Sequence record: PZ445527.1
Length of the DNA stretch: 64,000 nt
From: a phage
Direction: 5' to 3' (one strand)
Shown: positions 25,886 to 50,451 of the stretch, piece by piece
Layout: the number at the start of each line of letters is the position of its first letter
Position numbering within the stretch: position 1 is the stretch's first letter
Program-made: the position numbers and the translations under genes
The notes under the pieces: generated by a model
Database searches by the model: none
Told to the model about the DNA's origin: nothing
What the model saw: only the letters and a program-made list of their open reading frames with translations

Positions 25886-26075
25886 TTGTTTCTCCTAAAT
25901 TTTCCGGTTCTTCTAAACGTTTGCCTTCATGATCTACTCGAATAACTCCGCATCCTTCGCAAATCACAACTGCACCATAACCTTCTTTGACTTCAGCTTC
26001 TGTAATCAAACCAGAAAGATCACCAGTATCTCTGCCCCACATATCAATGGAGCATTGTTTGCAGAAATCAGCCAT
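25878..26075 (-). CDS. small Cys-containing protein 65 aa
   Basis: ORF track; CKQC...CEGC. Confidence 0.45.
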   Translation of the reverse strand: MADFCKQCSIDMWGRDTGDLSGLITEAEVKEGYGAVVICEGCGVIRVDHEGKRLEEPENLGETNE

Positions 26076-26100
26076 ATTTTATTTCCTATTTAAGTTAATT

Positions 26101-26177
26101 TGGGGTGGCTAGTGGAACTCGAATCCACATAGGCCTGATTCACAATCAGGATCATTAACCAATTATGATATAGCCAC
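26101..26177 (-). tRNA. tRNA-His (anticodon GUG)
   Basis: Perfect 7-bp acceptor, D-stem TCAT/ATGA, anticodon stem CCTGA/TCAGG with loop TTGTGAA, T-arm GTGGA-TTCGAGT-TCCAC, encoded CCA. Confidence 0.75.
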
Positions 26178-26543
26178 AATTGAAAACTCGCAGGGTTAGC
26201 GAAACCATCCTCAATTAGCATGTTCTAGAATACTAATCAAGTTATCTCCTATTGCACGCAGCTCAAGACGAGTACGAATTTTCAATTGTGGCGGCTCTCA
26301 GAAACTCTTCTATTCTAGCCTCAGAAGCTTACCCCCGAACGCATGTCGGGAAAGTCTTTCCAAGCGCATCAAATAGCACCGTTACACTTTGAGCCATTGA
26401 TGTATCAAGGAATAGAAGGACTTGAACCTTCATGAGTTAGACCATTTAACTCAACCGCTTTTTAGGGTATATTTCTAGGAGTGGATGTTCCTAGTAAACC
26501 TATTCGGCAGTCCCGTCTACCAATTCCGGCATATTCCAAGATT

Positions 26544-26638
26544 TGGAGGTAGGTAAGGGGATCGAACCATTACACCGTATCACTACGGTCAACCGATTTC
26601 AAGTCGGAGTCCATCGCCAGCCGTTGGATTGACCTACC
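26544..26638 (-). tRNA. tRNA-Ser (anticodon UGA), type II
   Basis: 7-bp perfect acceptor, anticodon loop CTTGAAA, long variable arm (ACCGTA/TACGGT), T-loop TTCGATC, CCA. Confidence 0.7.
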
Positions 26639-26650
26639 TTATAAATTGTT

Positions 26651-26735
26651 TGGTGGGTTAGGAGAGACTCGAACTCTCACGCACTTAAGCAAGGGCTTCT
26701 AAGACCCTCGTGGCTACCAATTACACCACTAACCC
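26651..26735 (-). tRNA. tRNA-Leu (anticodon UAG), type II
   Basis: 7-bp perfect acceptor, anticodon loop CTTAGAA, long variable arm, T-arm GAGAG-TTCGAGT-CTCTC, CCA. Confidence 0.7.
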
Positions 26736-26741
26736 CTAATT

Positions 26742-26816
26742 TGGTGGACAGTAGGAGAGTCGAACTCCTCACTCCTGAGTGCAAGTCAGGTATTTTCCCA
26801 GATAAACTAACCGCCC
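26742..26816 (-). tRNA. tRNA-Ala (anticodon UGC)
   Basis: Acceptor GGGCGGT with G3:U70 wobble (Ala identity element), anticodon stem CCTGA/TCAGG loop CTTGCAC, T-arm AGGAG-TTCGACT-CTCCT, CCA. Confidence 0.7.
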
Positions 26817-27055
26817 AAATTCTTTAATTTACTAAGGCTATTAGCTCGGCGTAACTACAGCACCTTCGCTTCAAGCGGAAGGAACCGCGTCATCTCGCAA
26901 ACCCAATACACTATTCAGTTGCCGCTGAATCTAGTGGACTAATCTAGAACTTCTCCCGAGTCGTAGGGATCGTGCTTTTTGGCAGCCAGTCCTAGGTCGA
27001 GCTAATACCTTAGTGAATTATGATGAGGATTTCTCCCATATCAATTTATATAAAT

Positions 27056-27084
27056 ATTATAACAAGAAATTAATCATCAAGCAA
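27056..27084 (-). promoter_or_regulatory. sigma70 promoter (TTGCTT-17-TATAAT) driving the tRNA block 26101-26816
   Basis: Minus strand consensus upstream of untranslated spacer and tRNAs. Confidence 0.65.
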
Positions 27085-27158
27085 TTGAGTTTTTCTTGAA
27101 ATTGGTAGCGGGTTCCAGTACTGCCCTGGACTTACTTAGCTTATGAGACTAAGAAGAA
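27083..27158 (-). ncRNA. tRNA-like sequence with CAU anticodon, 1:72 mismatch and non-canonical T-loop
   Basis: Acceptor 6/7 bp with CCA, anticodon loop CTCATAA; T-loop GGCAGTA lacks the T-psi-C pattern. Confidence 0.3.
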
Positions 27159-27165
27159 CTCTATG

Positions 27166-27260
27166 CCTTCCACCCGCAATTGTTTGGTTATTCTAGACAG
27201 GATTCGAACCTGTTATCACTTGTGCGGACTTACGAGAACCATTCTTTCACTCGAATCGAA
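27166..27260 (-). ncRNA. region with two T-loop-like motifs (GGTTCGAATCC and CGTTCGATTCG) that does not fold into a canonical tRNA
   Basis: Hand folding failed to find anticodon arm/acceptor pairing. Confidence 0.25.
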
Positions 27261-27431
27261 CGAGCTTCTGCCCTAGCCAAGCTGGTTTCCCCATCAACCA
27301 CGCTAGAATGTTTGATTGTTTTCAGTGCAAGAGTCCGAGTCTTGGACACGACCGTTTCGCAAGTACATAGGCAGCTTATCATGAGTCAGCACTTCCGAAT
27401 TGCTAGCCCCGTGTTCTGCACTGAAATTTTA

Positions 27432-27779
27432 TTAGTTTAACCGTAAAGTATTATCTAATTCACCATTAATTGTTCGGCATTCCTCTGGAATTGCTGGTGT
27501 GGCCTTGTATTCCCACCACTCAGCACCATCATATTCCCCACGTTCTAGCCAAGTTCCGTCGGCAAACCATACATTACCATAAAGTAATTGTCCACCGTAT
27601 CCAGAATCATACTCAAAGTCTAGGTTATCAAGAAAATCCTCAATATCTTCTTCTGTATAGCCTAAAGGTAATACCCAAACTTTTTTATCCCCATAATACC
27701 CGAATTCTATTTTAATACACTTAATTTTAGAATTGGTATTTTTTAAGGCAAGTAACAACTCTTCTTTAGCATTACGCAT
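27432..27779 (-). CDS. hypothetical protein 115 aa
   Basis: ORF track. Confidence 0.55.
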   Translation of the reverse strand: MRNAKEELLLALKNTNSKIKCIKIEFGYYGDKKVWVLPLGYTEEDIEDFLDNLDFEYDSGYGGQLLYGNVWFADGTWLERGEYDGAEWWEYKATPAIPEECRTINGELDNTLRLN

Positions 27780-27804
27780 AGTATATTCTCATACTGAATT
27801 AATT

Positions 27805-27881
27805 TGGCGCGACTGATGGGATTTGAACCCACATTCCCTCCCGTGATAGGGGAGTACCATTACCAAGCCAGCCACGGTCGC
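27805..27881 (-). tRNA. tRNA with unusual anticodon loop CTATCAC (anticodon AUC if folded conventionally)
   Basis: Acceptor 6/7 bp + CCA, T-arm GTGGG-TTCAAAT-CCCAT, anticodon stem CTCCC/GGGAG; A34 is atypical. Confidence 0.5.
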
Positions 27882-27890
27882 ATAATTTAT

Positions 27891-28076
27891 TTACTCAGCT
27901 TTGAGTTTTTCAATAGCTGCATTAAGTTCTTTAAGAAACTCTTTTCGTACATTAAGACGATTGAGACTTACTAGTATATCATGTTTAAGTTCTTCGATGT
28001 ATTTCTTCTCAACTTCAATATTGTTGATAGTGCTATCACGATGAACTTCTAGCTGCGCAATCACATTCTTGGACAT
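27891..28076 (-). CDS. hypothetical coiled-coil protein 61 aa
   Basis: ORF track. Confidence 0.4.
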   Translation of the reverse strand: MSKNVIAQLEVHRDSTINNIEVEKKYIEELKHDILVSLNRLNVRKEFLKELNAAIEKLKAE

Positions 28077-28178
28077 GCTTGTTTCCTCAGTTATTAATGA
28101 AAATGGTATCTGTGGCTGAATTAGATGTCAGCAATGATAGCTGGTTGGCTACCGGTTTACTTAACTCTACACAGAATT

Positions 28179-28260
28179 TGGCGGGCCGTGTAGGATTCGA
28201 ACCTACGTTGTCTTTCGACACGGATTAACAATCCGCCGCCAAACCGCTTGGCTAACGACC
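28179..28260 (-). tRNA. type II (long variable arm) tRNA with anticodon GUU
   Basis: 7-bp acceptor (one G-U), D-stem GCCA/TGGC, anticodon arm GCGGA-TTGTTAA-TCCGT, extra arm GTC-GAAA-GAC, T-arm GTAGG-TTCGAAT-CCTAC, CCA. Confidence 0.55.
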
Positions 28261-28416
28261 CTAAAAAATTTATATTGCTGACTAGGGTTTTCACCTAGAC
28301 GGAGTTAGCACCGTAGCGTGTAGCGGCATACCTCTCCAAACCGTGCCTCATCTTTCAATTACGGAGACAGTGTTCCTACGCGTGCCTGAATTGATTTAAC
28401 AATTCTTTCAGCAAAT

Positions 28417-28492
28417 TGGACGACCGCATGAGGATTGAACTCACATAAAAAGGATTTGCAATCCTTCGCCTAAGCCATTCAGCCAACGGTCG
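28417..28492 (-). tRNA. tRNA-Cys (anticodon GCA)
   Basis: 7-bp acceptor, anticodon stem AAGGA/TCCTT loop TTGCAAA, T-loop TTCAATC, CCA; 5' end overlaps stop of ORF 28479..28670. Confidence 0.65.
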
Positions 28493-28670
28493 ATTTATCT
28501 TGTTTTTCGAGATCTTCAAACTCTAAATCATTGAAGTTCCCTAGAGTACGGGTATAGAACCCATCCCCTGCGTCATAGCCTGATTTACCACAATCACACA
28601 TTTTAAATTCGCGCAGGTGTGTGAAAACATGTTCAGAACCACAACACTTAAATCTAACTAATCGTTTCAT
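28479..28670 (-). CDS. small zinc-finger-like protein 63 aa
   Basis: ORF track; CC...CDCGKSG. Confidence 0.4.
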   Translation of the reverse strand: MKRLVRFKCCGSEHVFTHLREFKMCDCGKSGYDAGDGFYTRTLGNFNDLEFEDLEKQDKSTVG

Positions 28671-28698
28671 TAGCTTCTCCAGTTCAATTTATGTAATT

Positions 28699-28727
28699 AT
28701 TATATAGAACTTTTGGGAACTAAGCAA
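28699..28727 (-). promoter_or_regulatory. sigma70 promoter (TTGCTT-17-TATAAT)
   Basis: Minus strand consensus. Confidence 0.65.
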
Positions 28728-29009
28728 CTACATTTTTTAAGAATTTGATGCCTTTCTTTTTCTTCTTATATTTCCACGTTAATGGATTCTGTCGATTATG
28801 AACGCTTGAGATCTTTGTCTCGTCAAAGTTCTTCAATATCATGTAATCACAAGATAATTGTTCTAGTGGAATGTGATCACCGTCAAAAGCGTATACATAA
28901 GGCTGTTGACTAGCACGATAATGATAGACTTTGTTAATTCTACGTTTCAGCGACTTATCCGCGCAGTAAATAAAGAAGTTTTAAGGGTGCATCAGCATCT
29001 CCTTCAATT

Positions 29010-29093
29010 TGGTGCATCGTGCTGGATTTGAACCACCAACCCCGAAGGGCACGGATTTACAGACCGCTGCAATAGCCATTCTGCCAACGATGC
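29010..29093 (-). tRNA. tRNA-Tyr (anticodon GUA), type II
   Basis: Perfect 7-bp acceptor, anticodon loop CTGTAAA, long variable arm (CCC-TTCG-GGG), T-loop TTCAAAT, CCA. Confidence 0.7.
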
Positions 29094-29221
29094 ACATTTA
29101 AAAGTATTCAAATACTAGTTTAAACACTTTTAAATATGTTTCCAAATTAGATAACTATTATACCAAGTTTTAAGGCACTGAGCAAGTCAGATTTTGAAGA
29201 ACTTGCTCAGTGCTGTATTAG

Positions 29222-29506
29222 TTAGTCGAACTTAGGAGTGACAGATAAGGAGAACGGAAGTTCAAAAACTTCTTCACCCTCATTACTAACGGTAACTACA
29301 CGACCTTTAAGTTCAGACATTAAAATATCAATATCAGCTTTTGCATCTGGAGCCATGCCAGCTTCAATACATTTAGCTTTAACTTCCGGTAAAAGCTCTA
29401 CGTTATAGAGATAGAGCCACTCAATCTCACCTTCCCAGTCTTCCCAGTCTTCCCAGGATTTGCAGATTGCACTTTCAATACCAGTTGCTACAACACGATT
29501 TTGCAT
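29222..29506 (-). CDS. hypothetical acidic protein 94 aa
   Basis: ORF track. Confidence 0.5.
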   Translation of the reverse strand: MQNRVVATGIESAICKSWEDWEDWEGEIEWLYLYNVELLPEVKAKCIEAGMAPDAKADIDILMSELKGRVVTVSNEGEEVFELPFSLSVTPKFD

Positions 29507-29596
29507 TCGTTAACTCCTTCATCAATTTATATAACTATTATACCAGAAATTTAAAGCAAAAGGCAAGTACATTTTTAAAAATTCTGTTTGGAGGAG

Positions 29597-29803
29597 CTAA
29601 ACTCCAGATTCTTCTGCCAAGTCTAGACTAATAAGAGTTATAGCCATAATTGCTGCACCGTGTTCTTTTTCTCCGGTGTTTTTAGCAGAGTCTATAATAT
29701 CCTTAATCTGTTCGTAATAACTTTTTACTTCTTGTTCAATGCCTGCCTCGGCTATCATGCCTTTAGTCATGAGTCGTTGCATGGTAATTTCAGTATTAGC
29801 CAT
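29597..29803 (-). CDS. hypothetical protein 68 aa
   Basis: ORF track; GGAG SD. Confidence 0.5.
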   Translation of the reverse strand: MANTEITMQRLMTKGMIAEAGIEQEVKSYYEQIKDIIDSAKNTGEKEHGAAIMAITLISLDLAEESGV

Positions 29804-29963
29804 GTTGTTTCTCCAGTTTCATTTTTAATAGTTTACAAATGAAATCAACGTCTTCATCCGTGCCTAGATCTCTATCTTCAAGGGTTGCCTTGAAATTTTT
29901 TGTTAGTTCCATAAGAATAACTTCCCTGGAACGACGTGTTGGCGGGGGTGGATGTCTATACAT
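29796..29963 (-). CDS. small proline-rich protein (55 aa)
   Basis: ATG with AAGGA SD, MYRHPPPPTRR...; below ORF track cut-off; overlaps next start by 8 nt. Confidence 0.4.
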   Translation of the reverse strand: MYRHPPPPTRRSREVILMELTKNFKATLEDRDLGTDEDVDFICKLLKMKLEKQHG

Positions 29964-29978
29964 CTTATTTCCTTAATT

Positions 29979-30053
29979 TGGTGGGTCGGAGGAGAATCTA
30001 ACTCCTACTCGTTAGCTTATGAGGCCACCGCTTTAACTTTAAGCTACCGACCC
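29979..30053 (-). tRNA. tRNA with CAU anticodon (Met or Ile-lysidine type) and atypical T-loop TTAGATT
   Basis: Perfect 7-bp acceptor GGGTCGG/CCGACCC, CCA, anticodon loop CTCATAA, T-stem AGGAG/CTCCT. Confidence 0.55.
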
Positions 30054-30059
30054 TATGTT

Positions 30060-30148
30060 TGGCGGAAGAAGTGGGAATCGAACCCACAAGGCTATATTTC
30101 AAACCGACAGATTAGCAATCTGCTGCAATACCGTTATGCTATTCTTCC
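30060..30148 (-). tRNA. tRNA-Ser (anticodon GCU), type II
   Basis: Perfect acceptor GGAAGAA/TTCTTCC, anticodon arm GCAGA-TTGCTAA-TCTGT, long variable arm, T-arm GTGGG-TTCGATT-CCCAC, CCA. Confidence 0.7.
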
Positions 30149-30162
30149 GAATTTATAAATAT

Positions 30163-30191
30163 ATTATATTAGAAATTTAGCTTCATAGCAA
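30163..30191 (-). promoter_or_regulatory. sigma70 promoter (TTGCTA-17-TATAAT) overlapping the 3' end of the upstream gene
   Basis: Minus strand consensus; would drive tRNAs 30148-29979. Confidence 0.6.
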
Positions 30192-30687
30192 GAAAATTTT
30201 TCAAGTTTTCGGTAGACATCTCATCCACATCTACAGGAGAAACAAATCCATTTAATTGTCTAGCAAATTTTTTACCAGCAGGATCATTATCCCCAACAGC
30301 TACCAATTTAAAAGGTAGTAATTTCAATTGCTTTAATAGCGCTTTTCCTGGAGAAGAACCCAACATTGCCAAGGCTGGATAACCAGCGTTATGTAACGCA
30401 ACTGCCTTAAATACAGATTCAGCAATCAATACCACTTTTTCATCTCCATTGAGAGTTTCTAGTCCCCATACACACTGTGTAGTAGAATAAGTAAAATATC
30501 TAGCTTCAAAGGGGCACTTACCATGACCTTTTGGAGCAGAAGGATTATAAGTCTGATAGCCTCTCAACATCCCAGAGAAGTCATACAATGGGACTGTTAG
30601 CCATCCTTCCGGGCTTAACCAGCAATGATATTTATCTGTATCAAACCCTCTAGATAAGAGATGTTCTGTTAGTTCATCAACAGTCAT
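30169..30687 (-). CDS. Toprim-domain protein 172 aa
   Basis: Conserved Glu (LIAESVF) and DxD (VGDNDPAGKK) spaced as in Toprim folds. Confidence 0.5.
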   Translation of the reverse strand: MTVDELTEHLLSRGFDTDKYHCWLSPEGWLTVPLYDFSGMLRGYQTYNPSAPKGHGKCPFEARYFTYSTTQCVWGLETLNGDEKVVLIAESVFKAVALHNAGYPALAMLGSSPGKALLKQLKLLPFKLVAVGDNDPAGKKFARQLNGFVSPVDVDEMSTENLKNFLAMKLNF

Positions 30688-30724
30688 ATTTGATCCCCTA
30701 GTTAGTTGTATAAATACATTATAC

Positions 30725-30758
30725 AGAAAAGCCCTGCGCTCTCCAGTGAACGCAGGGC
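30725..30758 (-). terminator. rho-independent terminator (gccctgcg...cgcagggc + U-tract)
   Basis: 8-bp GC stem followed by UUUU on minus strand, downstream of 30784..31731. Confidence 0.65.
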
Positions 30759-30783
30759 TTACTTCGAATATTACGTGTGGGTA

Positions 30784-31731
30784 TTACTTGTTACGCATAT
30801 CCATAATCATTTGGCCATCGTAACCAGTGCCAACCACAGTCTGCGGTACACCACCTTGATACTTCTGAGCACGAATCATTTCAACTTCTAGTTGCTTCCA
30901 GCGAATCATCTCAGGAGTAATGGTACGTTGCAGAGCGGCGTTAGCTTCAGCTTCTTTCTTAGCTGCGTACAGTTTAGCATCTGCATCACGTTCGTTTGCA
31001 ATAGCTTGGTTGTTACGAGCTTCACGATCTGCTTCTGCTTGTTTAACCTTCTGCTGTGCTTCTTGTTCAACACGAGCCAACTCAGCTTTCGCAGCATTAA
31101 CTTGTTCTTCACGAACTTTGGTATTCTGTACCTGTTCCATGATTACAGGCGGCAAAGTAATATCCTGAAGGAACACTTGCTTAACTGTGTAACCATAAGG
31201 GCGTGCATACTCTTCAACTTCCTGTTGAATTGCAGTTTGCAATTGAGCCTGAATTTTAGCATCAAACAAATCTTGTGCTTTAGGTACAGACTTACCAAAC
31301 TCACGAATAGTAGACAGTAATTTTTCAGTTACATACTTGTCTAGTGCCTGATCCTGAGTACCTGCATTAATACGGTTAATCGGTGCCTTAGAACCATCAA
31401 ACTGCAACATAACAGTCAGGTCAACAGTGGATTTAAACTTATCCTGACTAGGAACCTGAAGTTTATCTAATTTTACAGCAATATCTTTTGTACTGAAAGT
31501 ATCGAAAGATGCAAACGGGTTTACAATATGGAAACCAGGTAATACTGGATTAGGGTCTACTTTACCAAGAAATGTTTGGGTTTTAACCGTACCATCAGAA
31601 ACAATAGTATATGAATTAAAAGCTAGGATTAAACCTGCTAAACCAACTACAGCACCAATACCCCAACGTTTAATAGTACGGATTACTTTCTGCTCAGAAG
31701 TCAGTTCTTTCATATTTTTAGTAGCAAACAT
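30784..31731 (-). CDS. SPFH/band-7 (prohibitin/HflK-like) membrane protein 315 aa
   Basis: N-terminal TM helix, SPFH-like core, long Ala/Glu/Gln-rich coiled-coil C-terminus. Confidence 0.6.
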   Translation of the reverse strand: MFATKNMKELTSEQKVIRTIKRWGIGAVVGLAGLILAFNSYTIVSDGTVKTQTFLGKVDPNPVLPGFHIVNPFASFDTFSTKDIAVKLDKLQVPSQDKFKSTVDLTVMLQFDGSKAPINRINAGTQDQALDKYVTEKLLSTIREFGKSVPKAQDLFDAKIQAQLQTAIQQEVEEYARPYGYTVKQVFLQDITLPPVIMEQVQNTKVREEQVNAAKAELARVEQEAQQKVKQAEADREARNNQAIANERDADAKLYAAKKEAEANAALQRTITPEMIRWKQLEVEMIRAQKYQGGVPQTVVGTGYDGQMIMDMRNK

Positions 31732-31765
31732 ATATTTCCTTTGTTTTAGTTACAGTTAATAAAAT

Positions 31766-31839
31766 TGGCCGAGGTGACAGGATTCGAACCTGCATAAAGG
31801 AATTTAGAAGACTCCTGCCTCTCCCTTAGACTACACCCC
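31766..31839 (-). tRNA. tRNA-Arg (anticodon UCU)
   Basis: Acceptor 7 bp (one G-U), anticodon loop CTTCTAA, T-loop TTCGAAT, CCA. Confidence 0.6.
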
Positions 31840-32343
31840 GTTTAAGTATTTTTAAGAACTCTCGTAAAAACTCTTAAAAATACAGACGATACCGGGAGAG
31901 TCATAAGTCTCACTCATTAAGTATTTCAAGACAAAATACAGTAACGTCTATTATTTTCCAGTTTAAGTCAGGGTGACTTAGTGGTTATGTCCTGCGGTAT
32001 ATTGAGGACTCGGTTAGGCTTGGGGTCATGACTTCCCGCCTTTTGCTGCTACTCAACAGGAGTTATCGCGAATTACCTGTGCTATTGTGCACCATTAGTG
32101 ACATCTCTCATGCCAGCATTTCCCACTTTGTGGATAGCTTGAAAAACTACTCCGATACGGAGAAAGAACTTCACTATCCTAGAATACCTTCTAAAGTTCT
32201 TCTTTAGCCTGGACATAGTTAAATCGTAATAAAACTATTCAGCAGACCGGTTGGTTAGTCTGGAACCAACTACCGCGTGGTTTAGGCAGTGCGCAACTAA
32301 CCTCGGAAGCTTTTACGTTAAAAGCACCAGTTATCCAGTTCTT

Positions 32344-33662: not shown

Positions 33663-34484
33663 TTAAAATAGATCATATTCTAATCTATTGGGATTTTCTC
33701 GGTATCCATAAGACGTAAGAGTACCCCTCATATACTCTGCGTCAACAGGATTAGATGTTACTAGAACCACTTTTAGTGGTCTTTGACCTAAAAATAGTAT
33801 ATGATCTAATAAGTCTTTTCCTTGTACCTCTGGATCTCCTAAATCTGAGTCCATAAATAAATAGGATCCTGTGAAACTAAATATATCTGATAGTTCCAGC
33901 GCACCTATAACTGTACGACAAATAATGGACATTTCAGGTAGATCTCTAACATCGTCTATTAGAATATTGGTCTGCTTCCCAATTTCTGCATTACATAAAC
34001 CATTTACTAGTTTTTCTCTTTCCCCTTTAGCTTGTTCGAAAGTGGTGAAGCCAGGAGATACGAAAAACTTTCCACCTAATGTAATGCTATACACAAAACC
34101 CTCTGGGAGTAGTTCTACACCTACGGTTTTATTAGTATTAATCCTATTTAACTTAAAATTTGTCTCTCTTAGATTAATAATTCTGTTATCCCACGGTATA
34201 GTATTTATATGGTCGATCATATAAGGCGGCTCTTCACCATAATGGAGCAACCACGCTATTCGGTGTCCATAAATAATTGTGGGTTTATTATCTAAGAGCA
34301 AACTAACTCTGATGTACCCATCAGAGTTCTTACTACATATTTCTCTCCCAGCATATAGGGTGTGCCAAGTTTTATTCTTGTATTTATTAGGCTTATAAAA
34401 TAATTTACCGGTATAAGGATTATACTCTATAATTTCTCGAATATAATCTATATATGGTAGTATTTGTTTTTGTAATTTACCCAT
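33663..34484 (-). CDS. HNH endonuclease domain protein 273 aa
   Basis: N-terminal AP2-like segment and HNH motif (GHRIAWLLHYG...IDHINTIPWDNRIINLR). Confidence 0.6.
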   Translation of the reverse strand: MGKLQKQILPYIDYIREIIEYNPYTGKLFYKPNKYKNKTWHTLYAGREICSKNSDGYIRVSLLLDNKPTIIYGHRIAWLLHYGEEPPYMIDHINTIPWDNRIINLRETNFKLNRINTNKTVGVELLPEGFVYSITLGGKFFVSPGFTTFEQAKGEREKLVNGLCNAEIGKQTNILIDDVRDLPEMSIICRTVIGALELSDIFSFTGSYLFMDSDLGDPEVQGKDLLDHILFLGQRPLKVVLVTSNPVDAEYMRGTLTSYGYRENPNRLEYDLF

Positions 34485-37144: not shown

Positions 37145-37660
37145 TTACTTCGCTTTACGTTTACGAGCTGGTTTAGCAGATTTACGAGCAGAATCACCCG
37201 TGAACTTAATGCCTACACCGTAACACAGAGCACGAACATTATCTTTACTATACTCTACGCCAAAGATATTTGGCTTAACAGAACCAAACTGTCCACGAGT
37301 ATCACGCAATACATCTGCCGTTGGTTTGCGTTTCTGGTTAACTGCTTTCTCGTAATCTTTCATGGCCATGCCATTACGAGGGAACAATTCTGCTCCAGCA
37401 TTGAAACTCAGTGCTACGGGAACAGATTTGTGACCGTAACCCTGTACATAGGTCACAAGGCGGGTTACAGAACGAGTAGCATTCTTAGCCTTCGGCTTTT
37501 GACGAATCGGAGCCGGACGATTCAGTGCCTGTGCAGCTTGAGCATCAGTAGGGTGCTTGCGCAGGTGGCGTTCCAGACGAGCTTTGCGGTTAGCCTCAGT
37601 CTGAGGGAAAGTTTTAACTGTAGTAGCTGCTTGAGTTTTTGCGTTTTTCTGCTTAGCCAT
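37145..37660 (-). CDS. basic hypothetical protein 171 aa (Lys/Arg-rich termini)
   Basis: ORF track; possibly nucleic-acid binding. Confidence 0.55.
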   Translation of the reverse strand: MAKQKNAKTQAATTVKTFPQTEANRKARLERHLRKHPTDAQAAQALNRPAPIRQKPKAKNATRSVTRLVTYVQGYGHKSVPVALSFNAGAELFPRNGMAMKDYEKAVNQKRKPTADVLRDTRGQFGSVKPNIFGVEYSKDNVRALCYGVGIKFTGDSARKSAKPARKRKAK

Positions 37661-37698: not shown

Positions 37699-37727
37699 AT
37701 TATACGGTAATTTGAAGCGTTTAGCAA
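37699..37727 (-). promoter_or_regulatory. sigma70 promoter (TTGCTA-17-TATAAT)
   Basis: Minus strand consensus. Confidence 0.7.
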
Positions 37728-37735: not shown

Positions 37736-38185
37736 TTAATTTATTAACTGTAAGCTTCTTTTAATTTCAGACCTTACCTGCATCAAAAGAACTCCTAAAG
37801 TATTGTCCCCGATGCCTCGGCAAACACCCCAATATGTATCTCCCCAGGTATTTCCTTCGATCAAAGTTGCATTTTTTGTTGCTAACAGTTTGTCCCTCAA
37901 ATCAGGGATTGCAAACTTTAACCGTAAAAGCTCTAGCATTACGTCATCTTTTACCTTATCCCAGTCAGAGCGCAGAGTTAATTTACGTCCCCTACGTTTG
38001 GCAACTCCTGCATTTAGGGAGCGCAGTACATGAGCTACATCATCTTTTTGGTCGGATTTCATAGCCTGAAAAGCATGTTCTACAGTATCAGCATGCCATA
38101 TCTCATTTAGATATTCGAAAGTAATTGGTGATAAATAAAAGTTAGATAAAAAACTATAAGTACCTTTAAATTCAGTAATCTTCAT
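37736..38185 (-). CDS. NADAR (YbiA-like, DUF1768) domain protein 149 aa
   Basis: NADAR pattern: FLSNFY, EHAFQA.K, KRRGRK, RSDWDKVK, GNTWGDTYWG, LG..LM.VR. Confidence 0.7.
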   Translation of the reverse strand: MKITEFKGTYSFLSNFYLSPITFEYLNEIWHADTVEHAFQAMKSDQKDDVAHVLRSLNAGVAKRRGRKLTLRSDWDKVKDDVMLELLRLKFAIPDLRDKLLATKNATLIEGNTWGDTYWGVCRGIGDNTLGVLLMQVRSEIKRSLQLIN

Positions 38186-38466
38186 TTTTTACGCCCCGCA
38201 TCTTTAGCCTCCTCGGCTGTATAGATATACTGATAAGCCCCTTTGGAGTAGGCTGGAGCAGTACACATTTTCTTACGCTCAATCTCTTCTTGAGCTTTTC
38301 TTTCGCGTTCAGCTAATTCTTCATCCAGATAAACTAAACGTTGTTCTGGAGGAGGTGGAAGACGTGTTTCTGGCTCACCAATATTAGCCTTTCTTATTTG
38401 ACGAGGTGATTGTGCACGTTTTCTCAACGGTTTAAATCCTAATGAATTTGAGTTATAAATTCGCAT
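38182..38466 (-). CDS. hypothetical protein 94 aa
   Basis: ORF track. Confidence 0.5.
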   Translation of the reverse strand: MRIYNSNSLGFKPLRKRAQSPRQIRKANIGEPETRLPPPPEQRLVYLDEELAERERKAQEEIERKKMCTAPAYSKGAYQYIYTAEEAKDAGRKK

Positions 38467-38542
38467 AAAGCCCTCCTCACTTTCAATACGAATATTATAC
38501 TAAATTAGAGGGCTTTAAGCAAGAAGATTTTTAATTTATTTA

Positions 38543-39019
38543 TCACATCTCGGCAAGTTCTTGCTCAGTAATAACAGTATTACATAATGCGTCAACTTCT
38601 TCATTACCTCTAATACCTGAGTGCCCTTTAACCTTAATAAAGGTAGGGTTAGTATTATGAAAATTAATATACTGTTGGGTTAGTTTAAATGCTTCTTGCC
38701 ATAGTTCTAAATTGAGAGGAGCTTCACCATCTCCCTTCTTCCAGCCTTTCTTCTGCCAAGACCACATCCAGCTTTCCATACCATTTTTACAGTATGCAGA
38801 ATCAGTGTAGATTATAACTGGACGTTTATCATTCTTAGTAGCCCAGCGCAGAACTTCAACAATAGCTGTAAGTTCCATTTCATTGTTTGTGGTTTTTGGA
38901 CTGAAACCCGACTTAGAACCCAAACGTTCGTCATTAGGATCATAAACTACGAAACCCCAAGCACCTAAACCAGGATTACCTTTACAAGCCCCATCTGTAT
39001 ATATATGAAATGTACTCAT
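38543..39019 (-). CDS. rnhA: ribonuclease H (RNase HI type) 158 aa
   Basis: N-terminal FHIYTDGACKGNPG...WGF and conserved acidic residues. Confidence 0.8.
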   Translation of the reverse strand: MSTFHIYTDGACKGNPGLGAWGFVVYDPNDERLGSKSGFSPKTTNNEMELTAIVEVLRWATKNDKRPVIIYTDSAYCKNGMESWMWSWQKKGWKKGDGEAPLNLELWQEAFKLTQQYINFHNTNPTFIKVKGHSGIRGNEEVDALCNTVITEQELAEM

Positions 39020-39558
39020 TTATTAAGTTCCTCTAAAATAGGGGGTGGTTTTGTGGAATCAAAAGTTTCTATAACAGCGTTTTTACCGTGTAACTGTAGA
39101 CGAAGTTCATTGGCACATTGAATGGCGGATTCTAGGTCTTTGTACTCAAAATAACCACCATATACTGACTTTTTATCGGAGTCTCTAACATGTACTTGCC
39201 ATTTCTGATTTTGCCTATTCCAGCTAATTCCTAGATAACCAGATTTACTTCTAGTGGTTTTATTTCTCTGATTCTCTTGGTAATTAGATTTCCTGAGATT
39301 AATCCATCTATTATCATCTCGTATGCGGTTTATGTGGTCTACCATTTCCGGTAGATAGCCTTCCATATAGAGAAATGCTAGCTGATGCGCATAATATGGA
39401 TTTTTATCCACGGATATAGTTATATATCCGTCTTTTCTTAGATGACCAGCAATACTTCCTATTTTTCCGTTTCTACCCCTGACTCCCGTCCTTCTAGTAA
39501 ATATTCCGGTATCGGGGTTATAATCGAATAGTTCTTTTAATCTTTCTTGTGTGATCAT
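39016..39558 (-). CDS. HNH homing endonuclease (AP2-like N-terminal domain) 180 aa
   Basis: Paralog of 15232..15771 (same MITQERLKEL...YNP.TGIFT start). Confidence 0.7.
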   Translation of the reverse strand: MITQERLKELFDYNPDTGIFTRRTGVRGRNGKIGSIAGHLRKDGYITISVDKNPYYAHQLAFLYMEGYLPEMVDHINRIRDDNRWINLRKSNYQENQRNKTTRSKSGYLGISWNRQNQKWQVHVRDSDKKSVYGGYFEYKDLESAIQCANELRLQLHGKNAVIETFDSTKPPPILEELNK

Positions 39559-43175: not shown

Positions 43176-46100
43176 TTATAAGGTGCAGCCACCTGAAGAA
43201 CATCCTGTAGTTTCTCCAGCTCCTCCACCATTCGCAGTGTTAAAGTTAGCATAATACCAGGTTTTTATACCATACTTAACCGCAGTCATAAAGTCACGAA
43301 CTACTACTGGGCCAGGGATGATTTCATTCTCGAATTTAGAGTAATCATAATACATCTGGAAACTTGATGACTGACTCAAGAATTTTTGGTAAACGGCGTT
43401 CCACTTGATCCACTCAATACGATCTACATCATAGGCCAGTTTATAGCTCATGAGAGTATCCCAATCAGTTGCACCTGGGGCAATTGCAATTACTTTATTC
43501 ACTGCACTACCCTTGATAGATACAATCTTACGAGGTGGTTCAATAGAGTTAGTAACGCCTAACAGAACAGAGGAACTTTCTCCCGGCATCTGCGCAGTCA
43601 GAACAGAGTTACGCATACCGTATTTCAGAATGTCTGCACGCAGAGATTCCCAATCCATTTCTAGACCTACGGATACCAGCTCATCAACAGTTTTCTTATA
43701 CGTGTCGATTACCAGAATTCCTTTGGATGGTTTAGTACGATTAAACCATTCACATGCACCTTGTTCTTTAGCCAGACGTACAGAGGCTTTATGTAGGAAG
43801 TAAGACAGTTTTTCAGCTTCACGATGAATCCAGTTACGTGCTTCAACGCCTTCATAAGCCAAACCTTCCGCCGCCATTGCACCTGCTGCGTTCATCAGAC
43901 CAATACCAACATTACGACGTTTCTTAGCCGTATATTCCATAGTTGGGAACGGATAATCCTGAATTTCAATGATGGTATCAACGAATTTCAGGAGGATGTA
44001 GCAAGTTTTCTCCCACTCAGCCAGAGATTCCATGCGTCCTAGTACAACACCACCTAAGTTACACAGAGATACTTCACCAATATCCTCTGGCTTCATTTGA
44101 TCAAGCTGCTCTTTTGTCTTATACAGCTCTGTGATATGATGGAACGGGCGTGTAGGCTGAGTAATTTCTACACAGTTACCCGCTAAAATGCCATTAAATA
44201 CACCTAAGTTTAATTTAGGTTCTGTAAAGCAATAAGTATCACTAATACGACCAGTAAACTCAACGTTAGTTACAGTTACAAAACGGGTTGCGTCTCTATT
44301 GGGGCGTGTTAGGTTTAAGAGTTTCTCTTTATCCAAAGAGAGTCCTAAATCTTTAAGTTTCCAGAAGCCACTACTCCCCACAATAAGCCTACTAGTCTCC
44401 TTGCAGTGGTATAGTTTACTAGTACCAGTACCATCTGGTAACTCGTGGTCACCTTCTTTGCGTCCTAAAATAATCTTGCTAGTAACCCCCAATTCTAGTA
44501 ACAAATCCTTCACTTTACTTAGAAAATCAGGCTCTGCCGAAGCAACCACAATACTAGGAGTTGTGCCATTTTTCTGTATGCAGCCATCTGCATCTAAATA
44601 TCCCTCTAACCATTTGATACGGCTATCAATAGTATACTCTGGGCCAGGTACAAAATACTTCGGCATTAAATCAGACTTAACAATATAGCTCAGTCTACCT
44701 GTGCTGTCCAGTAATCCACTTCCCTGAATTTCTGCGTCAATTTTATCCACTAATGGTAGTTTGCCACCTTTTTCATAGAAGTACAGCTTAGGTTCTCCAT
44801 GTCTTCCATAAGTTCCATCTCCAGTGAAGAAACCGTTAGTATAAGGAGATTTTAGTACCATATTTCCATGATCTACAATAGGATTACTAAATTTAGGCAT
44901 TTTCATACCTACTTGCAAGTCTACTGCTCGTACCTCTTCTAGCCCCTGTTTGAAAGAGGTACGACGATCCTCTCTGACATATTTGGGCTGGTGGTAGAAC
45001 TTATGATAAAGAGTAGATTCAATAGTAGATCCATCAGAGAATGTGATTTTTATCAACTCCTGAGCTTCCCCAGTTTTAGTAGGGATAACTGTTGACCATT
45101 CTTGTCCGTTCCAAATCTCTACTTCTTTACCAACTAAATCAATAATCTCTATGTTACCATTTTTGGTTAAAATTTTTGTTTCTGGAGCTACACAAAGGTT
45201 TGTCATACGGATTGGATCAAGGAAGTTACCGTGACGATTAGATTCCCCGATGTGGTGCGCATACATACGTCCTGTTTCCATTCGGATACGTAGCCAAGTA
45301 TCTAGGATTTCTTTTGCAGAGACTTTAGGAGCTGCTGGAACTGTTTTTCCTTCGTGGTCGATCTTTGTAAGAGATGCCACACGTTTCTCCGCTGCCACGT
45401 AGATTTCTTCAAATTTAGCCTCGTCATCACTATAAAACGCTTCATGAACTTCTGGAGCATAGAAGTATGACATTAGCGTAATATCTTCATTTTTCAGATA
45501 ACGTTTTAACAAAAGATTGTTGAAGCTCAGAGAATAATCCATCTTATCAATTTTATTCTCGTCTGTAGCACGTTGTTGCTTAACCTGCATCAACTGAATG
45601 ATTTCAGGGTCAAAGTATGGATAAGACACTGTAGCAGAACCACCACGAGTTTGCTGAGTATTGGCCTTTACTGAGCGATCAATGTGTCGATAATATGGCA
45701 GTTTTCCGGAATGCGGGAATGCCCCATTTCGCACCGGATCAGCAATTGATCTGCTTTCAAGATGATACCCGATTCCCGCTCTGGCTGCAACCATTTTGAA
45801 GACGATGTGCTCGGCGGTGTCGATTGAATCCAACGTGTCAGTGGAATCCACGAGGCAGCAACTAGCAAATCCACGGTCACTAGAGCGCAGACCAACCAGT
45901 GGCGGCGTAGGAACGTTGATTTTGTGGAGCGACATTGCGTTGTAGAGGTCGATTGCATCTAGAATTGTCCAGTTAGGTTGAGATAACATCGCCATTGCCA
46001 TACCCATGTAGGCAAACTGCGGAGTTTCATAAATTTCACCAGTGGCTATGTTGCGGCGGGAATACTTATCAAAGAACTGCTTCAGTCCACCACTAGTAAA

Positions 46101-46523
46101 AAGACGGTCACGATCATGGTCGATAACCTGATTCAGAGCTTCAAATTGCTCATCGGTAATCCATGCACTCATGTCTTCCCATGCACCTACGCTAACCATG
46201 TGGTCATGGAAGAAGCGCAGAGAAGGTGGTTCGAAGGAATCATAAAGGCGTTTACGCATTTGCGCAAGACGTAATTCCTTTGCTGGCACATCGTATGCTG
46301 GGTTATCTTTGATAAGGCTTTCAGCAGCCTTAATTAATGCGTCCATCAGAGTGTCGGAATCTACAACCCCTTTAGGCAGAGTTTTTTGAGCAGCCATAGT
46401 AATGGCTGACCAACTTACATCAACTGTTTTGCAACCATACTCTGCCCAACCATTGAGTTTTTCAGGAGCAAAGTCTTCTACAGTACCGTCACGTTTAATT
46501 ACTTTTTCAATGCGATGGCTCAT
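43176..46523 (-). CDS. nrdA: ribonucleotide reductase class Ia large subunit (NrdA) containing a 340-aa intein
   Basis: ATP-cone start MSHRIEKVIKRDG (ORF track start trimmed to ATG 46523 behind a consensus promoter and SD), catalytic-site motif TNLC...VEI interrupted by intein; extein about 776 aa. Confidence 0.9.
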   Translation of the reverse strand: MSHRIEKVIKRDGTVEDFAPEKLNGWAEYGCKTVDVSWSAITMAAQKTLPKGVVDSDTLMDALIKAAESLIKDNPAYDVPAKELRLAQMRKRLYDSFEPPSLRFFHDHMVSVGAWEDMSAWITDEQFEALNQVIDHDRDRLFTSGGLKQFFDKYSRRNIATGEIYETPQFAYMGMAMAMLSQPNWTILDAIDLYNAMSLHKINVPTPPLVGLRSSDRGFASCCLVDSTDTLDSIDTAEHIVFKMVAARAGIGYHLESRSIADPVRNGAFPHSGKLPYYRHIDRSVKANTQQTRGGSATVSYPYFDPEIIQLMQVKQQRATDENKIDKMDYSLSFNNLLLKRYLKNEDITLMSYFYAPEVHEAFYSDDEAKFEEIYVAAEKRVASLTKIDHEGKTVPAAPKVSAKEILDTWLRIRMETGRMYAHHIGESNRHGNFLDPIRMTNLCVAPETKILTKNGNIEIIDLVGKEVEIWNGQEWSTVIPTKTGEAQELIKITFSDGSTIESTLYHKFYHQPKYVREDRRTSFKQGLEEVRAVDLQVGMKMPKFSNPIVDHGNMVLKSPYTNGFFTGDGTYGRHGEPKLYFYEKGGKLPLVDKIDAEIQGSGLLDSTGRLSYIVKSDLMPKYFVPGPEYTIDSRIKWLEGYLDADGCIQKNGTTPSIVVASAEPDFLSKVKDLLLELGVTSKIILGRKEGDHELPDGTGTSKLYHCKETSRLIVGSSGFWKLKDLGLSLDKEKLLNLTRPNRDATRFVTVTNVEFTGRISDTYCFTEPKLNLGVFNGILAGNCVEITQPTRPFHHITELYKTKEQLDQMKPEDIGEVSLCNLGGVVLGRMESLAEWEKTCYILLKFVDTIIEIQDYPFPTMEYTAKKRRNVGIGLMNAAGAMAAEGLAYEGVEARNWIHREAEKLSYFLHKASVRLAKEQGACEWFNRTKPSKGILVIDTYKKTVDELVSVGLEMDWESLRADILKYGMRNSVLTAQMPGESSSVLLGVTNSIEPPRKIVSIKGSAVNKVIAIAPGATDWDTLMSYKLAYDVDRIEWIKWNAVYQKFLSQSSSFQMYYDYSKFENEIIPGPVVVRDFMTAVKYGIKTWYYANFNTANGGGAGETTGCSSGGCTL
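44175..45194 (-). mobile_element. intein (340 aa) with LAGLIDADG homing-endonuclease domain, inserted at the NrdA catalytic Cys
   Basis: Starts with Cys (CVAPETKIL) right after TNL, ends ...ILAGN followed by +1 Cys (CVEITQP), restoring NLCVEI; LAGLIDADG-like blocks FFTGDG and LEGYLDADG. Confidence 0.8.
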
Positions 46524-46561
46524 TTGGTTTTCCTTTTTATAGTTATCAGGATTTAAGGAAT

Positions 46562-46590
46562 ATTCTACATTATTATTGGTCATTAGGCAA
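46562..46590 (-). promoter_or_regulatory. sigma70 promoter for nrdA (TTGCCT-17-TAGAAT)
   Basis: Minus strand; followed by AAAAGGAAAA SD and ATG at 46523. Confidence 0.6.
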
Positions 46591-46667
46591 ATAAAATTTT
46601 CTGATAGAAAAGGCCCGAGTATTTTCATACCCAGGCCCTCTGTGTTGTCAGTCTAGTTTTTGGCCAC

Positions 46668-47945: not shown

Positions 47946-48611
47946 ATGGTAAGAAAGAAAATAACTACAGAAGATGTGAACTTAGCACTTGCTCCCAGAG
48001 GAATAATTATGCTAAGCACGTATATATCAGCTAAATCCAATGCTATATTTAAGTGCTCTAATGGGCATAGTTGGGAGGCTAGAGTAGATAATGTAAAAGG
48101 TGGGAGAGGTTGCCCTTATTGTGCTAGTCGTACTTTAGATCTTAAAGAGGTAAATGAATCCTTAGCTGCTCGTGGAATAAAGATGGAAGGTAAATACATC
48201 AATTCTAAGAGTAAAATTATGTTCAGCTGTGAGAATGATCATAGGTGGGAGTCTACCCTTGATAGTGTTAGAAATCATAATTCTGGTTGTCCTATATGTT
48301 TATTAGAGAAGGATAATTATCCTACTAACGTATATATTTTAGTAAGTAGTATGGGAACCAAAATAGGGATGTCTAGCAGAACTAAAGATAGACTCAGAGA
48401 TATTAAAACTTCTTCTAACATACATGATTTAAAAATATTTAAGGAATATAGCTTTTCAGATAGATCAAAAGCTGTGCGTATTGAAAGAGAAGCCCATTTA
48501 CAGTTTAAGGAATATAATTGTCAGTACAAAGATTTTGATGGTGCTACAGAATTTTTTAGTATTGAGCCAGAAGTAGTAGCAAGGTTTATTGAGGAAATAA
48601 TTAATGAATAA
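47946..48611 (+). CDS. zinc-ribbon repeat + T5orf172 (GIY-YIG-related) domain protein 221 aa
   Basis: Two C..GH.W....G.GCP.C repeats (CSNGHSWEARVDNVKGGRGCPYC; CENDHRWESTLDSVRNHNSGCPIC) and a KIGMSSRTKDRLRDIKT segment. Confidence 0.6.
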   Translation: MVRKKITTEDVNLALAPRGIIMLSTYISAKSNAIFKCSNGHSWEARVDNVKGGRGCPYCASRTLDLKEVNESLAARGIKMEGKYINSKSKIMFSCENDHRWESTLDSVRNHNSGCPICLLEKDNYPTNVYILVSSMGTKIGMSSRTKDRLRDIKTSSNIHDLKIFKEYSFSDRSKAVRIEREAHLQFKEYNCQYKDFDGATEFFSIEPEVVARFIEEIINE

Positions 48612-50451
48612 AGATGAATTGATTAGAAACTGCAAAGAAATTATTGAGGGTTCTGCTGATGAAGAGCTTCTCTTTAATAATGCGAATAAACCCTCTGAGC
48701 GTTTCCCTACACAAAGGGATATGCTTGCAGGGGAATTGAGTAAATATCTGATTCTAGAAGAAATGCCAATTCAGATTCGAAATGCTCATATGATTGGAGA
48801 TATTCATTTCCATGATGCTGACTATGCTGCATTAGGCATGACTAACTGTTGCCTAGTAGCCCTGGAAGATATGTTGAAAAATGGTATGAAAGTTGGTAAT
48901 GCTGAAATTAGTACACCAAATTCTATTACTACTGCGGCGGCTATTACTGCTCAGATTATCACTCAGGTTAGCTCCCATCAGTATGGTGGTACTTCTGTAG
49001 ATCGCCTTGATGAAGTATTAGCCCCTTATGTTCGTAAGTCCTATGATAAAAATCATGCGTTTGCAAAACGTTGGACTAAGGATGAAGCTAAAGCATCTGT
49101 AATGGCTACGGAGATGACTGAAAAAGAAGTCTATGACGCTTGCCAGGGTTTAGAATATGAAATCAATACCATGTTCAACTCTAACGGTCAGAGTCCATTT
49201 ATTACCTTTGGTTTTGGTCTAGGAACTTCTTGGGAAGCACGTCTAGTACAGAAAGCAATACTGAAAGTACGCATGGATGGTTTAGGTATCAATAAACGTA
49301 CAGCTATCTTCCCGAAACTGGTATTTGTACTTCGTGATGGCGTAAATATGAAACCAGGGGATGTTAATTATGACATCAAGAAGTTAGCTATGAAATGTAC
49401 TGCTGAACGTATGTATCCAGATTATATCAGCTATGATAAGGTTGTGGAAGTTACTGGAGACTATAAAGTTTCTATGGGCTGCCGTTCATTCCTAGCTGCT
49501 GCAGAAGATGGTGAAACTGCCGGTCGTAATAACTTAGGTGTTGTTTCTGTAAACTTGCCTAGAATTGCTATCGAAGCTGAAGGAAATATTGACCTATTCT
49601 TTGATTTGCTTGAGCTACGTGTAGATACAGCATTAAAAGCGTTGGAGTGGAGAGTTGATCGCTTAAAATACATTCAAGCTAAAGCTGCACCCATCCTCTA
49701 TATGTCAGGAGCCTTTGGATTACGCTTAGGGCCTGATGAATATGTATTCGATCATTTCTATAACCGTGCTTCTGTATCTCTAGGGTATATTGGTTGCCAT
49801 GAAATGCTACAGTTCATGTTTGGCAAAGATGTAGACACAATGTCCGAGACCTGCATCAAGTTTGTTCAGCGTGTATTGCAGTACATGCGGGATAGAGTCG
49901 ATCAGAAGAAGGAAGAAACTAAGTTAGGTTATAGCCTGTATGCTACACCATCAGAGTCCCTATGTGATCGCTTTTGTCGTCTAGACCGTGAATATTTCCC
50001 GGAGCATGAAGATATTCTGTCCAAAGGATACTACACTAACTCTCACCACCTTGATGTGGAACGTAAAGTTGCCCCTAACGTGAAATTTGATTATGAATCT
50101 AACTTTACTCCGATTGCTTCTGGTGGGTGTATCTCTTATGTAGAACTACCAGATATGAAACGATTCCCGGATGCACTGGAATGGGTTATTAATTATGCTG
50201 CTAGTAAGGTTCATTACTTCGGTATTAATACTCCAGTGGATTCCTGTGGTAAATGTGGATTCTTAGGTGAAACAGTAGCATCCGAAGATGGATTCAAGTG
50301 CCCTATCTGTGGTAATCATGACCCTGAAACTCTTGAAGTAACTCGTCGAGTTTGTGGGTATCTTGGAAATCCAGGTGCTCGTCCGTTTAACCCAGGAAAA
50401 CAACATGAGGTTATGGGCAGGGTGAAACATCAGGATATTCGAGCTAAATAA
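48604..50451 (+). CDS. nrdD: anaerobic ribonucleoside-triphosphate reductase (NrdD) 615 aa
   Basis: C-terminal glycyl-radical motif RVCGYLG and Zn site CPICGN; size. Confidence 0.9.
   Translation: MNKDELIRNCKEIIEGSADEELLFNNANKPSERFPTQRDMLAGELSKYLILEEMPIQIRNAHMIGDIHFHDADYAALGMTNCCLVALEDMLKNGMKVGNAEISTPNSITTAAAITAQIITQVSSHQYGGTSVDRLDEVLAPYVRKSYDKNHAFAKRWTKDEAKASVMATEMTEKEVYDACQGLEYEINTMFNSNGQSPFITFGFGLGTSWEARLVQKAILKVRMDGLGINKRTAIFPKLVFVLRDGVNMKPGDVNYDIKKLAMKCTAERMYPDYISYDKVVEVTGDYKVSMGCRSFLAAAEDGETAGRNNLGVVSVNLPRIAIEAEGNIDLFFDLLELRVDTALKALEWRVDRLKYIQAKAAPILYMSGAFGLRLGPDEYVFDHFYNRASVSLGYIGCHEMLQFMFGKDVDTMSETCIKFVQRVLQYMRDRVDQKKEETKLGYSLYATPSESLCDRFCRLDREYFPEHEDILSKGYYTNSHHLDVERKVAPNVKFDYESNFTPIASGGCISYVELPDMKRFPDALEWVINYAASKVHYFGINTPVDSCGKCGFLGETVASEDGFKCPICGNHDPETLEVTRRVCGYLGNPGARPFNPGKQHEVMGRVKHQDIRAK

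Follow-up and report, generated by a model that had tools for sequence, protein, structure and literature searches.

What does a 149-aa protein that carries several unrelated names contribute to a T5-like phage? The gene lies on the minus strand at 37736..38185 (ATG start, coordinates including the stop codon) of the stretch of phage DNA analyzed here, 64,000 nucleotides in length (PZ445527.1) and hereafter called the window. The source belongs to the T5-like phages (Demerecviridae, Markadamsvirinae), and the DNA around the gene shows 80-95% identity to hundreds of T5-like phages of Escherichia coli and Salmonella. GenBank records present the gene as a hypothetical protein, a swarming motility protein, a GTP cyclohydrolase II or an N-glycosidase, names that were inherited from homology to YbiA or to RibA fusions and have no tests behind them. 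The original prediction, made from the letters of the DNA, saw NADAR/YbiA signature blocks in the protein and proposed a counter-defense against DarTG-type abortive infection.

Profile searches confirmed that the protein is a NADAR. The Pfam profile PF08719 matched at 79 bits (E 6.3e-22), far above its gathering score of 35.1 bits, with protein residues 9-142 aligned to profile positions 9-163 of 163. The protein also matched PHROG 1017 (E 8e-45), and a phmmer search of PDB sequences returned significant matches to NADAR proteins only, namely YbiA (2b3w, E 2.8e-15) and the Phytophthora nicotianae NADAR, PnNADAR (8bau, E 6.8e-7). This family assignment is far above chance level. Against TIGR02464, which describes the riboflavin biosynthesis intermediates N-glycosidase, the score of 66.8 bits fell slightly below the curated NCBIfam cutoff of 73.7. 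Membership in the DS32_2 NADAR family of anti-phage proteins (NF053876) was rejected, the protein scoring 45 bits where the cutoff is 240.

Structure prediction led to the same family. The AlphaFold2 model, built with 58 homologues, reached a mean pLDDT of 97.9 and a pTM of 0.91, and displays the YbiA-like alpha+beta fold, in which a helical core is flanked by two small beta-sheets. Foldseek comparison with the PDB yielded just two significant matches, both NADARs: YbiA (2b3w; TM 0.83, E 8e-10, 36% identity) and 8bau (TM 0.78, E 1.4e-6). In PnNADAR, ADP-ribose is contacted by E43, K50, K75, R79, W89, R93, E125, D130, and W133 (Schuller et al. 2023, PMC11543638). The corresponding active-site residues of the window protein, as equated by the phmmer alignment to 8bau (where residue numbers are shifted by 2 relative to PMC11543638), are E36, K43, K63, R67, W75, K79, E110, D116, and W119. 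The 58 homologues, of 47-60% identity, keep E36, K43, E110, D116, and W119 without exception and K63 and W75 with few exceptions. The residue at the position of PnNADAR E125 tells the NADAR subfamilies apart: YbiA-type proteins have Glu, the BC4488/DarG1 type associated with DarT1 has Asp, and NADARs of T4-like phages have His (PMC11543638). Since all catalytic and ADP-ribose-binding residues are kept, the signature residue is E110, and the YbiA core begins at the very start of the protein, the window gene encodes an intact, minimal, single-domain NADAR of the Glu type that lacks an N-terminal extension. The NADAR/YbiA signature of the original prediction was thus borne out by the Pfam score, the fold, and the residues.

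A protein nearly identical to this one has already been studied. The product of bas32_0066 (QXV80247.1) of Escherichia phage IrisVonRoten, which the bas32_xxxx locus tags identify as BASEL phage Bas32, is equal in length to the window NADAR, matches it at 147 of 149 positions, and is syntenic with it. The two substitutions, T9A and K104E (T9 and K104 in the window), both fall outside the catalytic set and are presumably neutral. Gene order is also shared, as rnh, the T5.090-like gene, NADAR, promoter P-H207, and the T5.089-like gene follow one another in Bas32 as in the window, and the intergenic promoters are alike. The published carriers, Bas32 and Bas33, belong to the Markadamsvirinae, as does the window phage. 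Given the near-identity and the synteny, the window gene is an orthologue of AdfN^Bas32. Several phages encode a protein 100% identical to that of the window, and the 90% cluster around it holds 235 member sequences.

The published work on this orthologue addresses the anti-DarTG proposal directly. Johannesman, Carlson & LeRoux (Nat Commun 2025, PMC11825919) found that gp30.3 of T4 (AdfN^T4), an orphan NADAR, serves as an antitoxin by clearing phage DNA of the ADP-ribose that DarT1 installs. In the same study, ectopically expressed AdfN^Bas32 neutralized DarT1 toxicity in uninfected E. coli and brought RB69, T5, and Bas25 back to full titer on DarTG1 hosts; T5 is restricted by DarTG1 and was rescued by AdfN^Bas32 supplied in trans. 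Restriction of T5 by the thymidine-modifying DarTG2 was unaffected (PMC11825919). The counter-defense claim of the original prediction consequently holds for the guanine-modifying DarT1 system and not for DarTG systems in general, AdfN^Bas32 being inactive against DarTG2. Its biochemical premise, that NADARs remove ADP-ribose from guanine, agrees with the literature, where this activity is conserved across several subfamilies (PMC11543638, PMC11125620). In the accessible texts on AdfN^Bas32, we found neither a purified-enzyme assay nor a catalytic mutant. The accessible literature likewise yielded no native deletion in Bas32 or another T5-like phage, and no plating of Bas32 or Bas33 themselves on DarTG1.

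Taking the orthology and the published phenotypes together, we consider it highly probable that the window gene encodes an AdfN-type guanine-ADP-ribosylglycohydrolase that would disarm DarTG1. In the proposed mechanism, infection of a DarTG1 host would lead DarT1 to place ADP-ribose on guanine of the phage DNA and so block its replication. The phage NADAR would then hydrolyze the N-glycosidic bond between ribose and guanine, restoring the DNA and allowing the phage to replicate. By analogy with the activity measured for other NADARs, the window protein is expected to hydrolyze guanine-ADP-ribose directly, and the genomic cassette that carries it would make its own phage resistant to DarTG1. 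Such an enzyme would act as an orphan antitoxin, and no cognate ART toxin gene lies beside it in the window; the neighboring genes encode RNase H, an HNH endonuclease, a T5.090-like protein, a DUF7022 protein, and an Rv2179c-like exonuclease.

The organization of the locus suggests early, coordinated expression. All of its genes lie on the minus strand, in the order HNH endonuclease (39016..39558), RNase H (rnh, 38543..39019), T5.090 homologue (38182..38466), NADAR, and DUF7022/T5.089 homologue (37145..37660), beyond which small open reading frames precede the Rv2179c-like exonuclease gene. The T5.090 homologue, a 94-aa open reading frame product to which no function is assigned and for which a Pfam search gave no match, is 91% identical to T5.090 except over its last ~12 residues. 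Its TGA stop codon overlaps the NADAR ATG (ATGA), and on the strength of this overlap the two genes are probably co-transcribed and translationally coupled.

Two T5-type promoters frame the pair. The first lies on the minus strand at 38494..38522, within the 76-nt region between rnh and the T5.090 homologue. It consists of a -35 element (TTGCTT, 38522..38517), a 17-nt spacer, and a -10 element (TATAAT, 38499..38494), with an A-rich tract upstream and a Shine-Dalgarno sequence (GAGGAGG) at 38478..38472. A consensus promoter scan missed it, the -35 element fitting at 3 of 6 positions; alignment to the promoter that the T5 record annotates at the matching position (46337-46411) revealed it. In this alignment, the window, T5, Bas32, and Bas27 have the same promoter core. 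It likely serves the T5.090-like/NADAR pair, implying that NADAR would be expressed early from a promoter upstream of the T5.090-like gene. The second promoter (37699..37727, minus strand; TTGCTA, 17 nt, TATAAT; 10 of 12 positions matched in the promoter scan) stands directly 3′ of the NADAR stop codon and is annotated as P-H 207 in T5. This classical T5 early promoter drives the DUF7022/T5.089 homologue and delimits the cassette at its 3′ end.

Comparison of filled and empty sites defined NADAR as part of an accessory cassette among T5-like phages. In T5, rnh (T5.091), T5.090, P-H207, and T5.089 succeed one another without the insert, and Bas27 shows the same arrangement. In the phage collection, 96 records encode a NADAR at ≥95% identity, and the filled locus is covered in 93 records. 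Most of the ~450 T5-like records instead aligned in two pieces (about 1,466 bp versus 1,951 bp), corresponding to an empty site. With 93-96 filled records among roughly 450, the cassette is present in about one-fifth of T5-like records.

The boundaries of the cassette are unequal. On the left, the boundary coincides exactly with the NADAR stop codon, and the sequence is conserved up to that point in phages with and without NADAR. Because a global MAFFT alignment of empty and filled sites smeared T5 and Bas27 over the 3′ end of NADAR, it was used for the left boundary only. At the opposite edge, a protein-level comparison shows that filled and empty sites disagree over the final ~12 codons of the T5.090 homologue, which read YIYTAEEAKDAGRKK at filled sites and YVSDEEQAKMVGR at empty sites. 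This difference indicates that the inserted segment supplied a new 3′ end to the upstream gene as well. Composition gave no sign of recent transfer, the GC content of the cassette (37.3%) being indistinguishable from that of the window (38.9%).

The HNH gene directly upstream of rnh in the window phage raised the question of mobilization by a homing endonuclease. Such a link was rejected: the HNH gene lies two genes away from NADAR and is lacking in Bas32. Since Bas32 nevertheless carries NADAR, the HNH and NADAR insertions are independent.

Other Markadamsvirinae carry divergent NADARs in the adjacent slot. Salmonella phage UTK0009 (Epseptimavirus) encodes one, 60% identical to that of the window, between rnh and the T5.090 homologue, whereas identity to the window counterpart is 81% for its flanking RNase H and 88% for its T5.090 homologue. 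This discrepancy between the NADAR and its flanks indicates a separate acquisition or an allele replacement. In the more distant phage Eos, NADAR follows rnh directly, with 52% identity to the window for NADAR and RNase H alike, a pattern compatible with vertical descent. The NADARs of the window, UTK0009, and Eos all keep E36, K43, K63, W75, K79, E110, D116, and W119. Beyond T5-like phages, the closest homologues (60-61% identity) reside on phage-like metagenomic contigs. On one of these, the homologue adjoins a YAcAr-domain gene together with PTPS and GTP cyclohydrolase I of the 7-deazaguanine pathway; on another, it adjoins genes for an Rnl1-type RNA ligase and a kinase/phosphatase.

We tentatively propose a broader reading, to which we give a rather low probability: the interval between rnh and the T5.089 homologue might be an anti-defense slot of the Markadamsvirinae, where NADARs were captured more than once, and the naked Glu-type enzyme of the window/Bas32 type, active against DarT1 in vivo where YbiA is not, might have a wider substrate range (RNA guanosine-ADP-ribose, cytidine-ADP-ribose) and so counter ADP-ribosylating defenses beyond DarTG1.

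Genes related to NAD and ADP-ribose elsewhere in the window had been cited in the original prediction as company for NADAR. Both are present as described: a Sir2-family protein is encoded on the plus strand at 51212..52051 (PF02146, 87 bits), and the NAD-dependent DNA ligase is split into a piece with the adenylation and OB domains (60104..61075) and a piece with the HhH/BRCT domains (61867..62637). As functional evidence, however, their co-occurrence has no value. T5 carries Sir2 (T5.102) and the split ligase (T5.116/T5.117) without NADAR, and 998 phage records have a Sir2 homologue versus 96 with the window-type NADAR. Being core T5-like genes present in a NADAR-less phage, they are uninformative about what NADAR does. 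The window also encodes a cREC-domain protein.

Three other accounts of the enzyme's role were weighed against this background. The protein could primarily be a metabolic N-glycosidase of the YbiA type, acting on riboflavin-pathway intermediates or ribosylamines, with the anti-DarT1 effect a side activity of overexpression. This account draws on YbiA as the best PDB match (40% identity), on the signature Glu at E110, on the 66.8-bit TIGR02464 score, and on the GenBank names N-glycosidase, GTP cyclohydrolase II and swarming motility protein, but that score is under the cutoff, and the surroundings of the gene are an early DNA-metabolism region devoid of riboflavin genes. Absence of the cassette from about four-fifths of T5-like phages, T5 included, is better fitted by anti-defense, and the 99%-identical protein rescues three phages and neutralizes DarT1, which YbiA does not (PMC11825919, PMC11125620). 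We therefore regard a primarily metabolic role as very improbable. Equally little credence goes to a soluble ADP-ribose derivative as the main substrate, be it an immune signaling molecule or a side product of NAD+ turnover or RNA repair. Iyer et al. 2022 (PMC9503650) suggested such substrates for phage NADARs from contextual arguments, and these substrates would suit both the homologues outside T5-like phages that adjoin YAcAr or Rnl1 RNA-repair genes and the Sir2 and cREC genes of the window. Direct evidence for a NADAR acting on signals of this kind is absent, though, and the window gene is not beside RNA-repair or NAD-salvage genes, while Sir2 is also found in NADAR-less T5. Moreover, the toxin that the tested orthologue counteracts in vivo, with and without phage, is directed at DNA (PMC11825919). 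A primary role in metabolism or on soluble substrates thus fits the accessory distribution and the published phenotype poorly, although either activity might accompany the main one.

The remaining account extends the main explanation instead of opposing it. Every NADAR that was tested removes ADP-ribose from guanosine in RNA (PMC11833690), and some, YbiA types included, also remove ADP-ribose from cytidine (PMC12945103). As a Glu/YbiA-type protein, the window NADAR could likewise be a general eraser of ADP-ribose from nucleic acids, active on RNA guanosine and cytidine and directed at further ART toxins. We see this as possible but doubtful, as no defense of E. coli or Salmonella is known to use RNA-guanosine or cytidine ADP-ribose against T5-like phages. 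Reversal of DarT1-installed guanine ADP-ribosylation remains the reading that we prefer.

The anti-DarTG1 interpretation is correct, yet it was already published in 2025, the concept and the 99%-identical protein alike, and our analysis adds no new biology to phage orphan NADAR antitoxins. Its practical yield is one of annotation: the gene can be named as an orthologue of AdfN (anti-DarT factor NADAR) in place of the names that it now bears. With this annotation, escape from DarTG1 can be better predicted for T5-like phages, among them candidates for therapy against E. coli and Salmonella. New, though minor, are the distribution of the cassette in about one-fifth of T5-like records, the ATGA coupling, and the conserved early promoter, as well as the divergent NADARs in the neighboring slot of other Markadamsvirinae.

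Set against the known NADARs, the window protein combines features of several types. With AdfN^T4 it shares the status of an orphan phage NADAR linked to DarT1 reversal, and the Glu/Lys pair of AdfN^T4 aligns with E36/K43. AdfN^T4, however, has His where the window has E110, and membership of the window protein in the T4 gp30.3 clade was rejected on this residue and on a BLASTP E value of 1.2, that is, no detectable similarity. Function differs as well, since AdfN^T4 is unable to neutralize DarT1 outside T-even infection whereas the Bas32 type is able to do so (PMC11825919). The authors of that study inferred separate acquisitions of the Bas32-type and T4-type genes (PMC11825919), with which the sequence differences seen here agree.

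E. coli YbiA (2b3w), the housekeeping N-glycosidase of the YbiA subfamily, is the best PDB match, at 40% identity (E 5e-21) and TM 0.83, and resembles the window protein in being a naked core without an N-terminal extension and in having Glu at the signature position. The two differ in context, as ybiA lies in the chromosomal series rhlE-ybiA-dinG-ybiB and the window gene in a phage early operon. They also differ in one active-site residue, YbiA having Ala at the position of window K63 (the equivalent of K75 in PnNADAR). In vitro, YbiA and T4 gp30.3 both hydrolyze guanine-ADP-ribose, yet neither protects E. coli from DarT1 toxicity (PMC11125620); the Bas32 type, equally naked, does so in vivo (PMC11825919). 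We speculate that the difference between Lys at K63 and Ala in YbiA might underlie the activity in vivo. A more basic surface was rejected as the reason, the window protein having a pI of 9.0 and a net charge of +3 versus 9.4 and +5 in YbiA, and the Bas32 allele a pI of 7.9.

DarG1 of the BC4488 subfamily (E. coli C7, Geobacter lovleyi) counters DarT1 in uninfected cells, as the Bas32 type does, by the reaction that is also expected of the window protein. It is distinguished by an Asp signature, a basic N-terminal beta1-beta2-alpha1 extension for which ssDNA binding has been proposed, and an adjacent darT1 gene (PMC11543638). Membership in the DarG1/BC4488 group was rejected, the window protein having E110, a length of 149 aa without the extension, and no ART gene nearby. 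Finally, PnNADAR (8bau, in complex with ADP-ribose) superimposes at TM 0.78, with the residue pairs E43/E36, K50/K43, K75/K63, R79/R67, W89/W75, E125/E110, D130/D116, and W133/W119 (PnNADAR/window). It differs in its 26% identity, its length of 189 aa, its extra N-terminal and inserted elements, and R93, which corresponds to K79 in the window protein.

At the 3′ end of the T5.090 homologue (window 38182..38220), the last ~12 codons read YIYTAEEAKDAGRKK in NADAR-plus phages versus YVSDEEQAKMVGR in NADAR-minus phages, the latter type being represented by T5 and Salmonella phage UTK0009. This difference indicates that the insertion extends into the upstream gene, whose 3′ end it replaced, and that it creates the ATGA overlap.

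Divergent NADAR genes occur in UTK0009 (locus L005, 1789..2238; 60% identical to the window NADAR) and in phage Eos (locus L007, 3218..3727; 52% identical). Both lie immediately after rnh, one slot from the position of the window gene. Because the genes flanking NADAR in UTK0009 retain 81-88% identity to their window counterparts while NADAR itself shows 60%, the sequence comparison suggests independent capture or allele replacement in this phage.

Outside the T5-like phages, the closest NADAR homologues reside on phage-like metagenomic contigs (L010, 4001..4826; L011, 2561..4438). One of them overlaps a gene with a YAcAr domain, upstream of which lie PTPS and GTP cyclohydrolase I genes. The other is preceded by an Rnl1-type RNA ligase and followed by Metallophos and AAA_33 genes, and this Rnl1/NADAR/Metallophos/AAA_33 context resembles RNA repair.

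GenBank annotation of the NADAR gene (37736..38185) is inconsistent across matching public records, in which it is named hypothetical protein, swarming motility protein, GTP cyclohydrolase II, N-glycosidase, riboflavin biosynthesis protein or NADAR family protein. None of the names listed among these records reflects the published anti-DarTG1 role.

As an NAD/ADP-ribose-related gene, NADAR may be of less interest than a minus-strand gene at 33663..34484, whose 273-aa product has both an HNH_3 endonuclease domain and a cREC_REC (cyclic-phosphate processing receiver) domain. Processing of ADP-ribose derivatives has been predicted for several superfamilies, cREC being one of them (PMC9503650). 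The window also carries a cluster of 12 tRNA genes (25483..31840, minus strand), including one at 27805..27881 that ARAGORN assigns to tRNA-Asp with the unusual anticodon ATC instead of GTC.

An HNH_3 homing-endonuclease ORF (39016..39558, minus strand) overlaps the start of rnh, whereas Bas32 lacks it there, its thyA-rnh gap being 375 nt with no annotated gene. This ORF is thus a presence/absence polymorphism independent of the NADAR cassette, which lies two genes away. On the plus strand, the ORF at 47946..48611, in which a DUF4379 zinc finger is combined with T5orf172/MUG113 (GIY-YIG-like) and CapR-homology domains, sits directly upstream of nrdD (48604..50451) and overlaps it; T5 has only promoters at this position, and the ORF is probably a further mobile endonuclease-type insertion.

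NrdA, the large subunit of a class Ia ribonucleotide reductase (43176..46628, minus strand), reaches 1150 aa, compared with 811 aa in T5 and 776 aa in KS_S14. A LAGLIDADG_3 domain occupies residues 672-758, within the barrel domain, and the protein looks like an NrdA carrying an inserted intein with a homing endonuclease. The NAD-dependent DNA ligase (60104..62637, plus strand) is split in two, with the adenylation and OB domains encoded at 60104..61075 and the HhH and BRCT domains at 61867..62637, an arrangement shared with T5 (ligA/ligB). Between the halves T5 has promoters only, whereas the window holds a GIY-YIG endonuclease ORF (61053..61709) that separates them.
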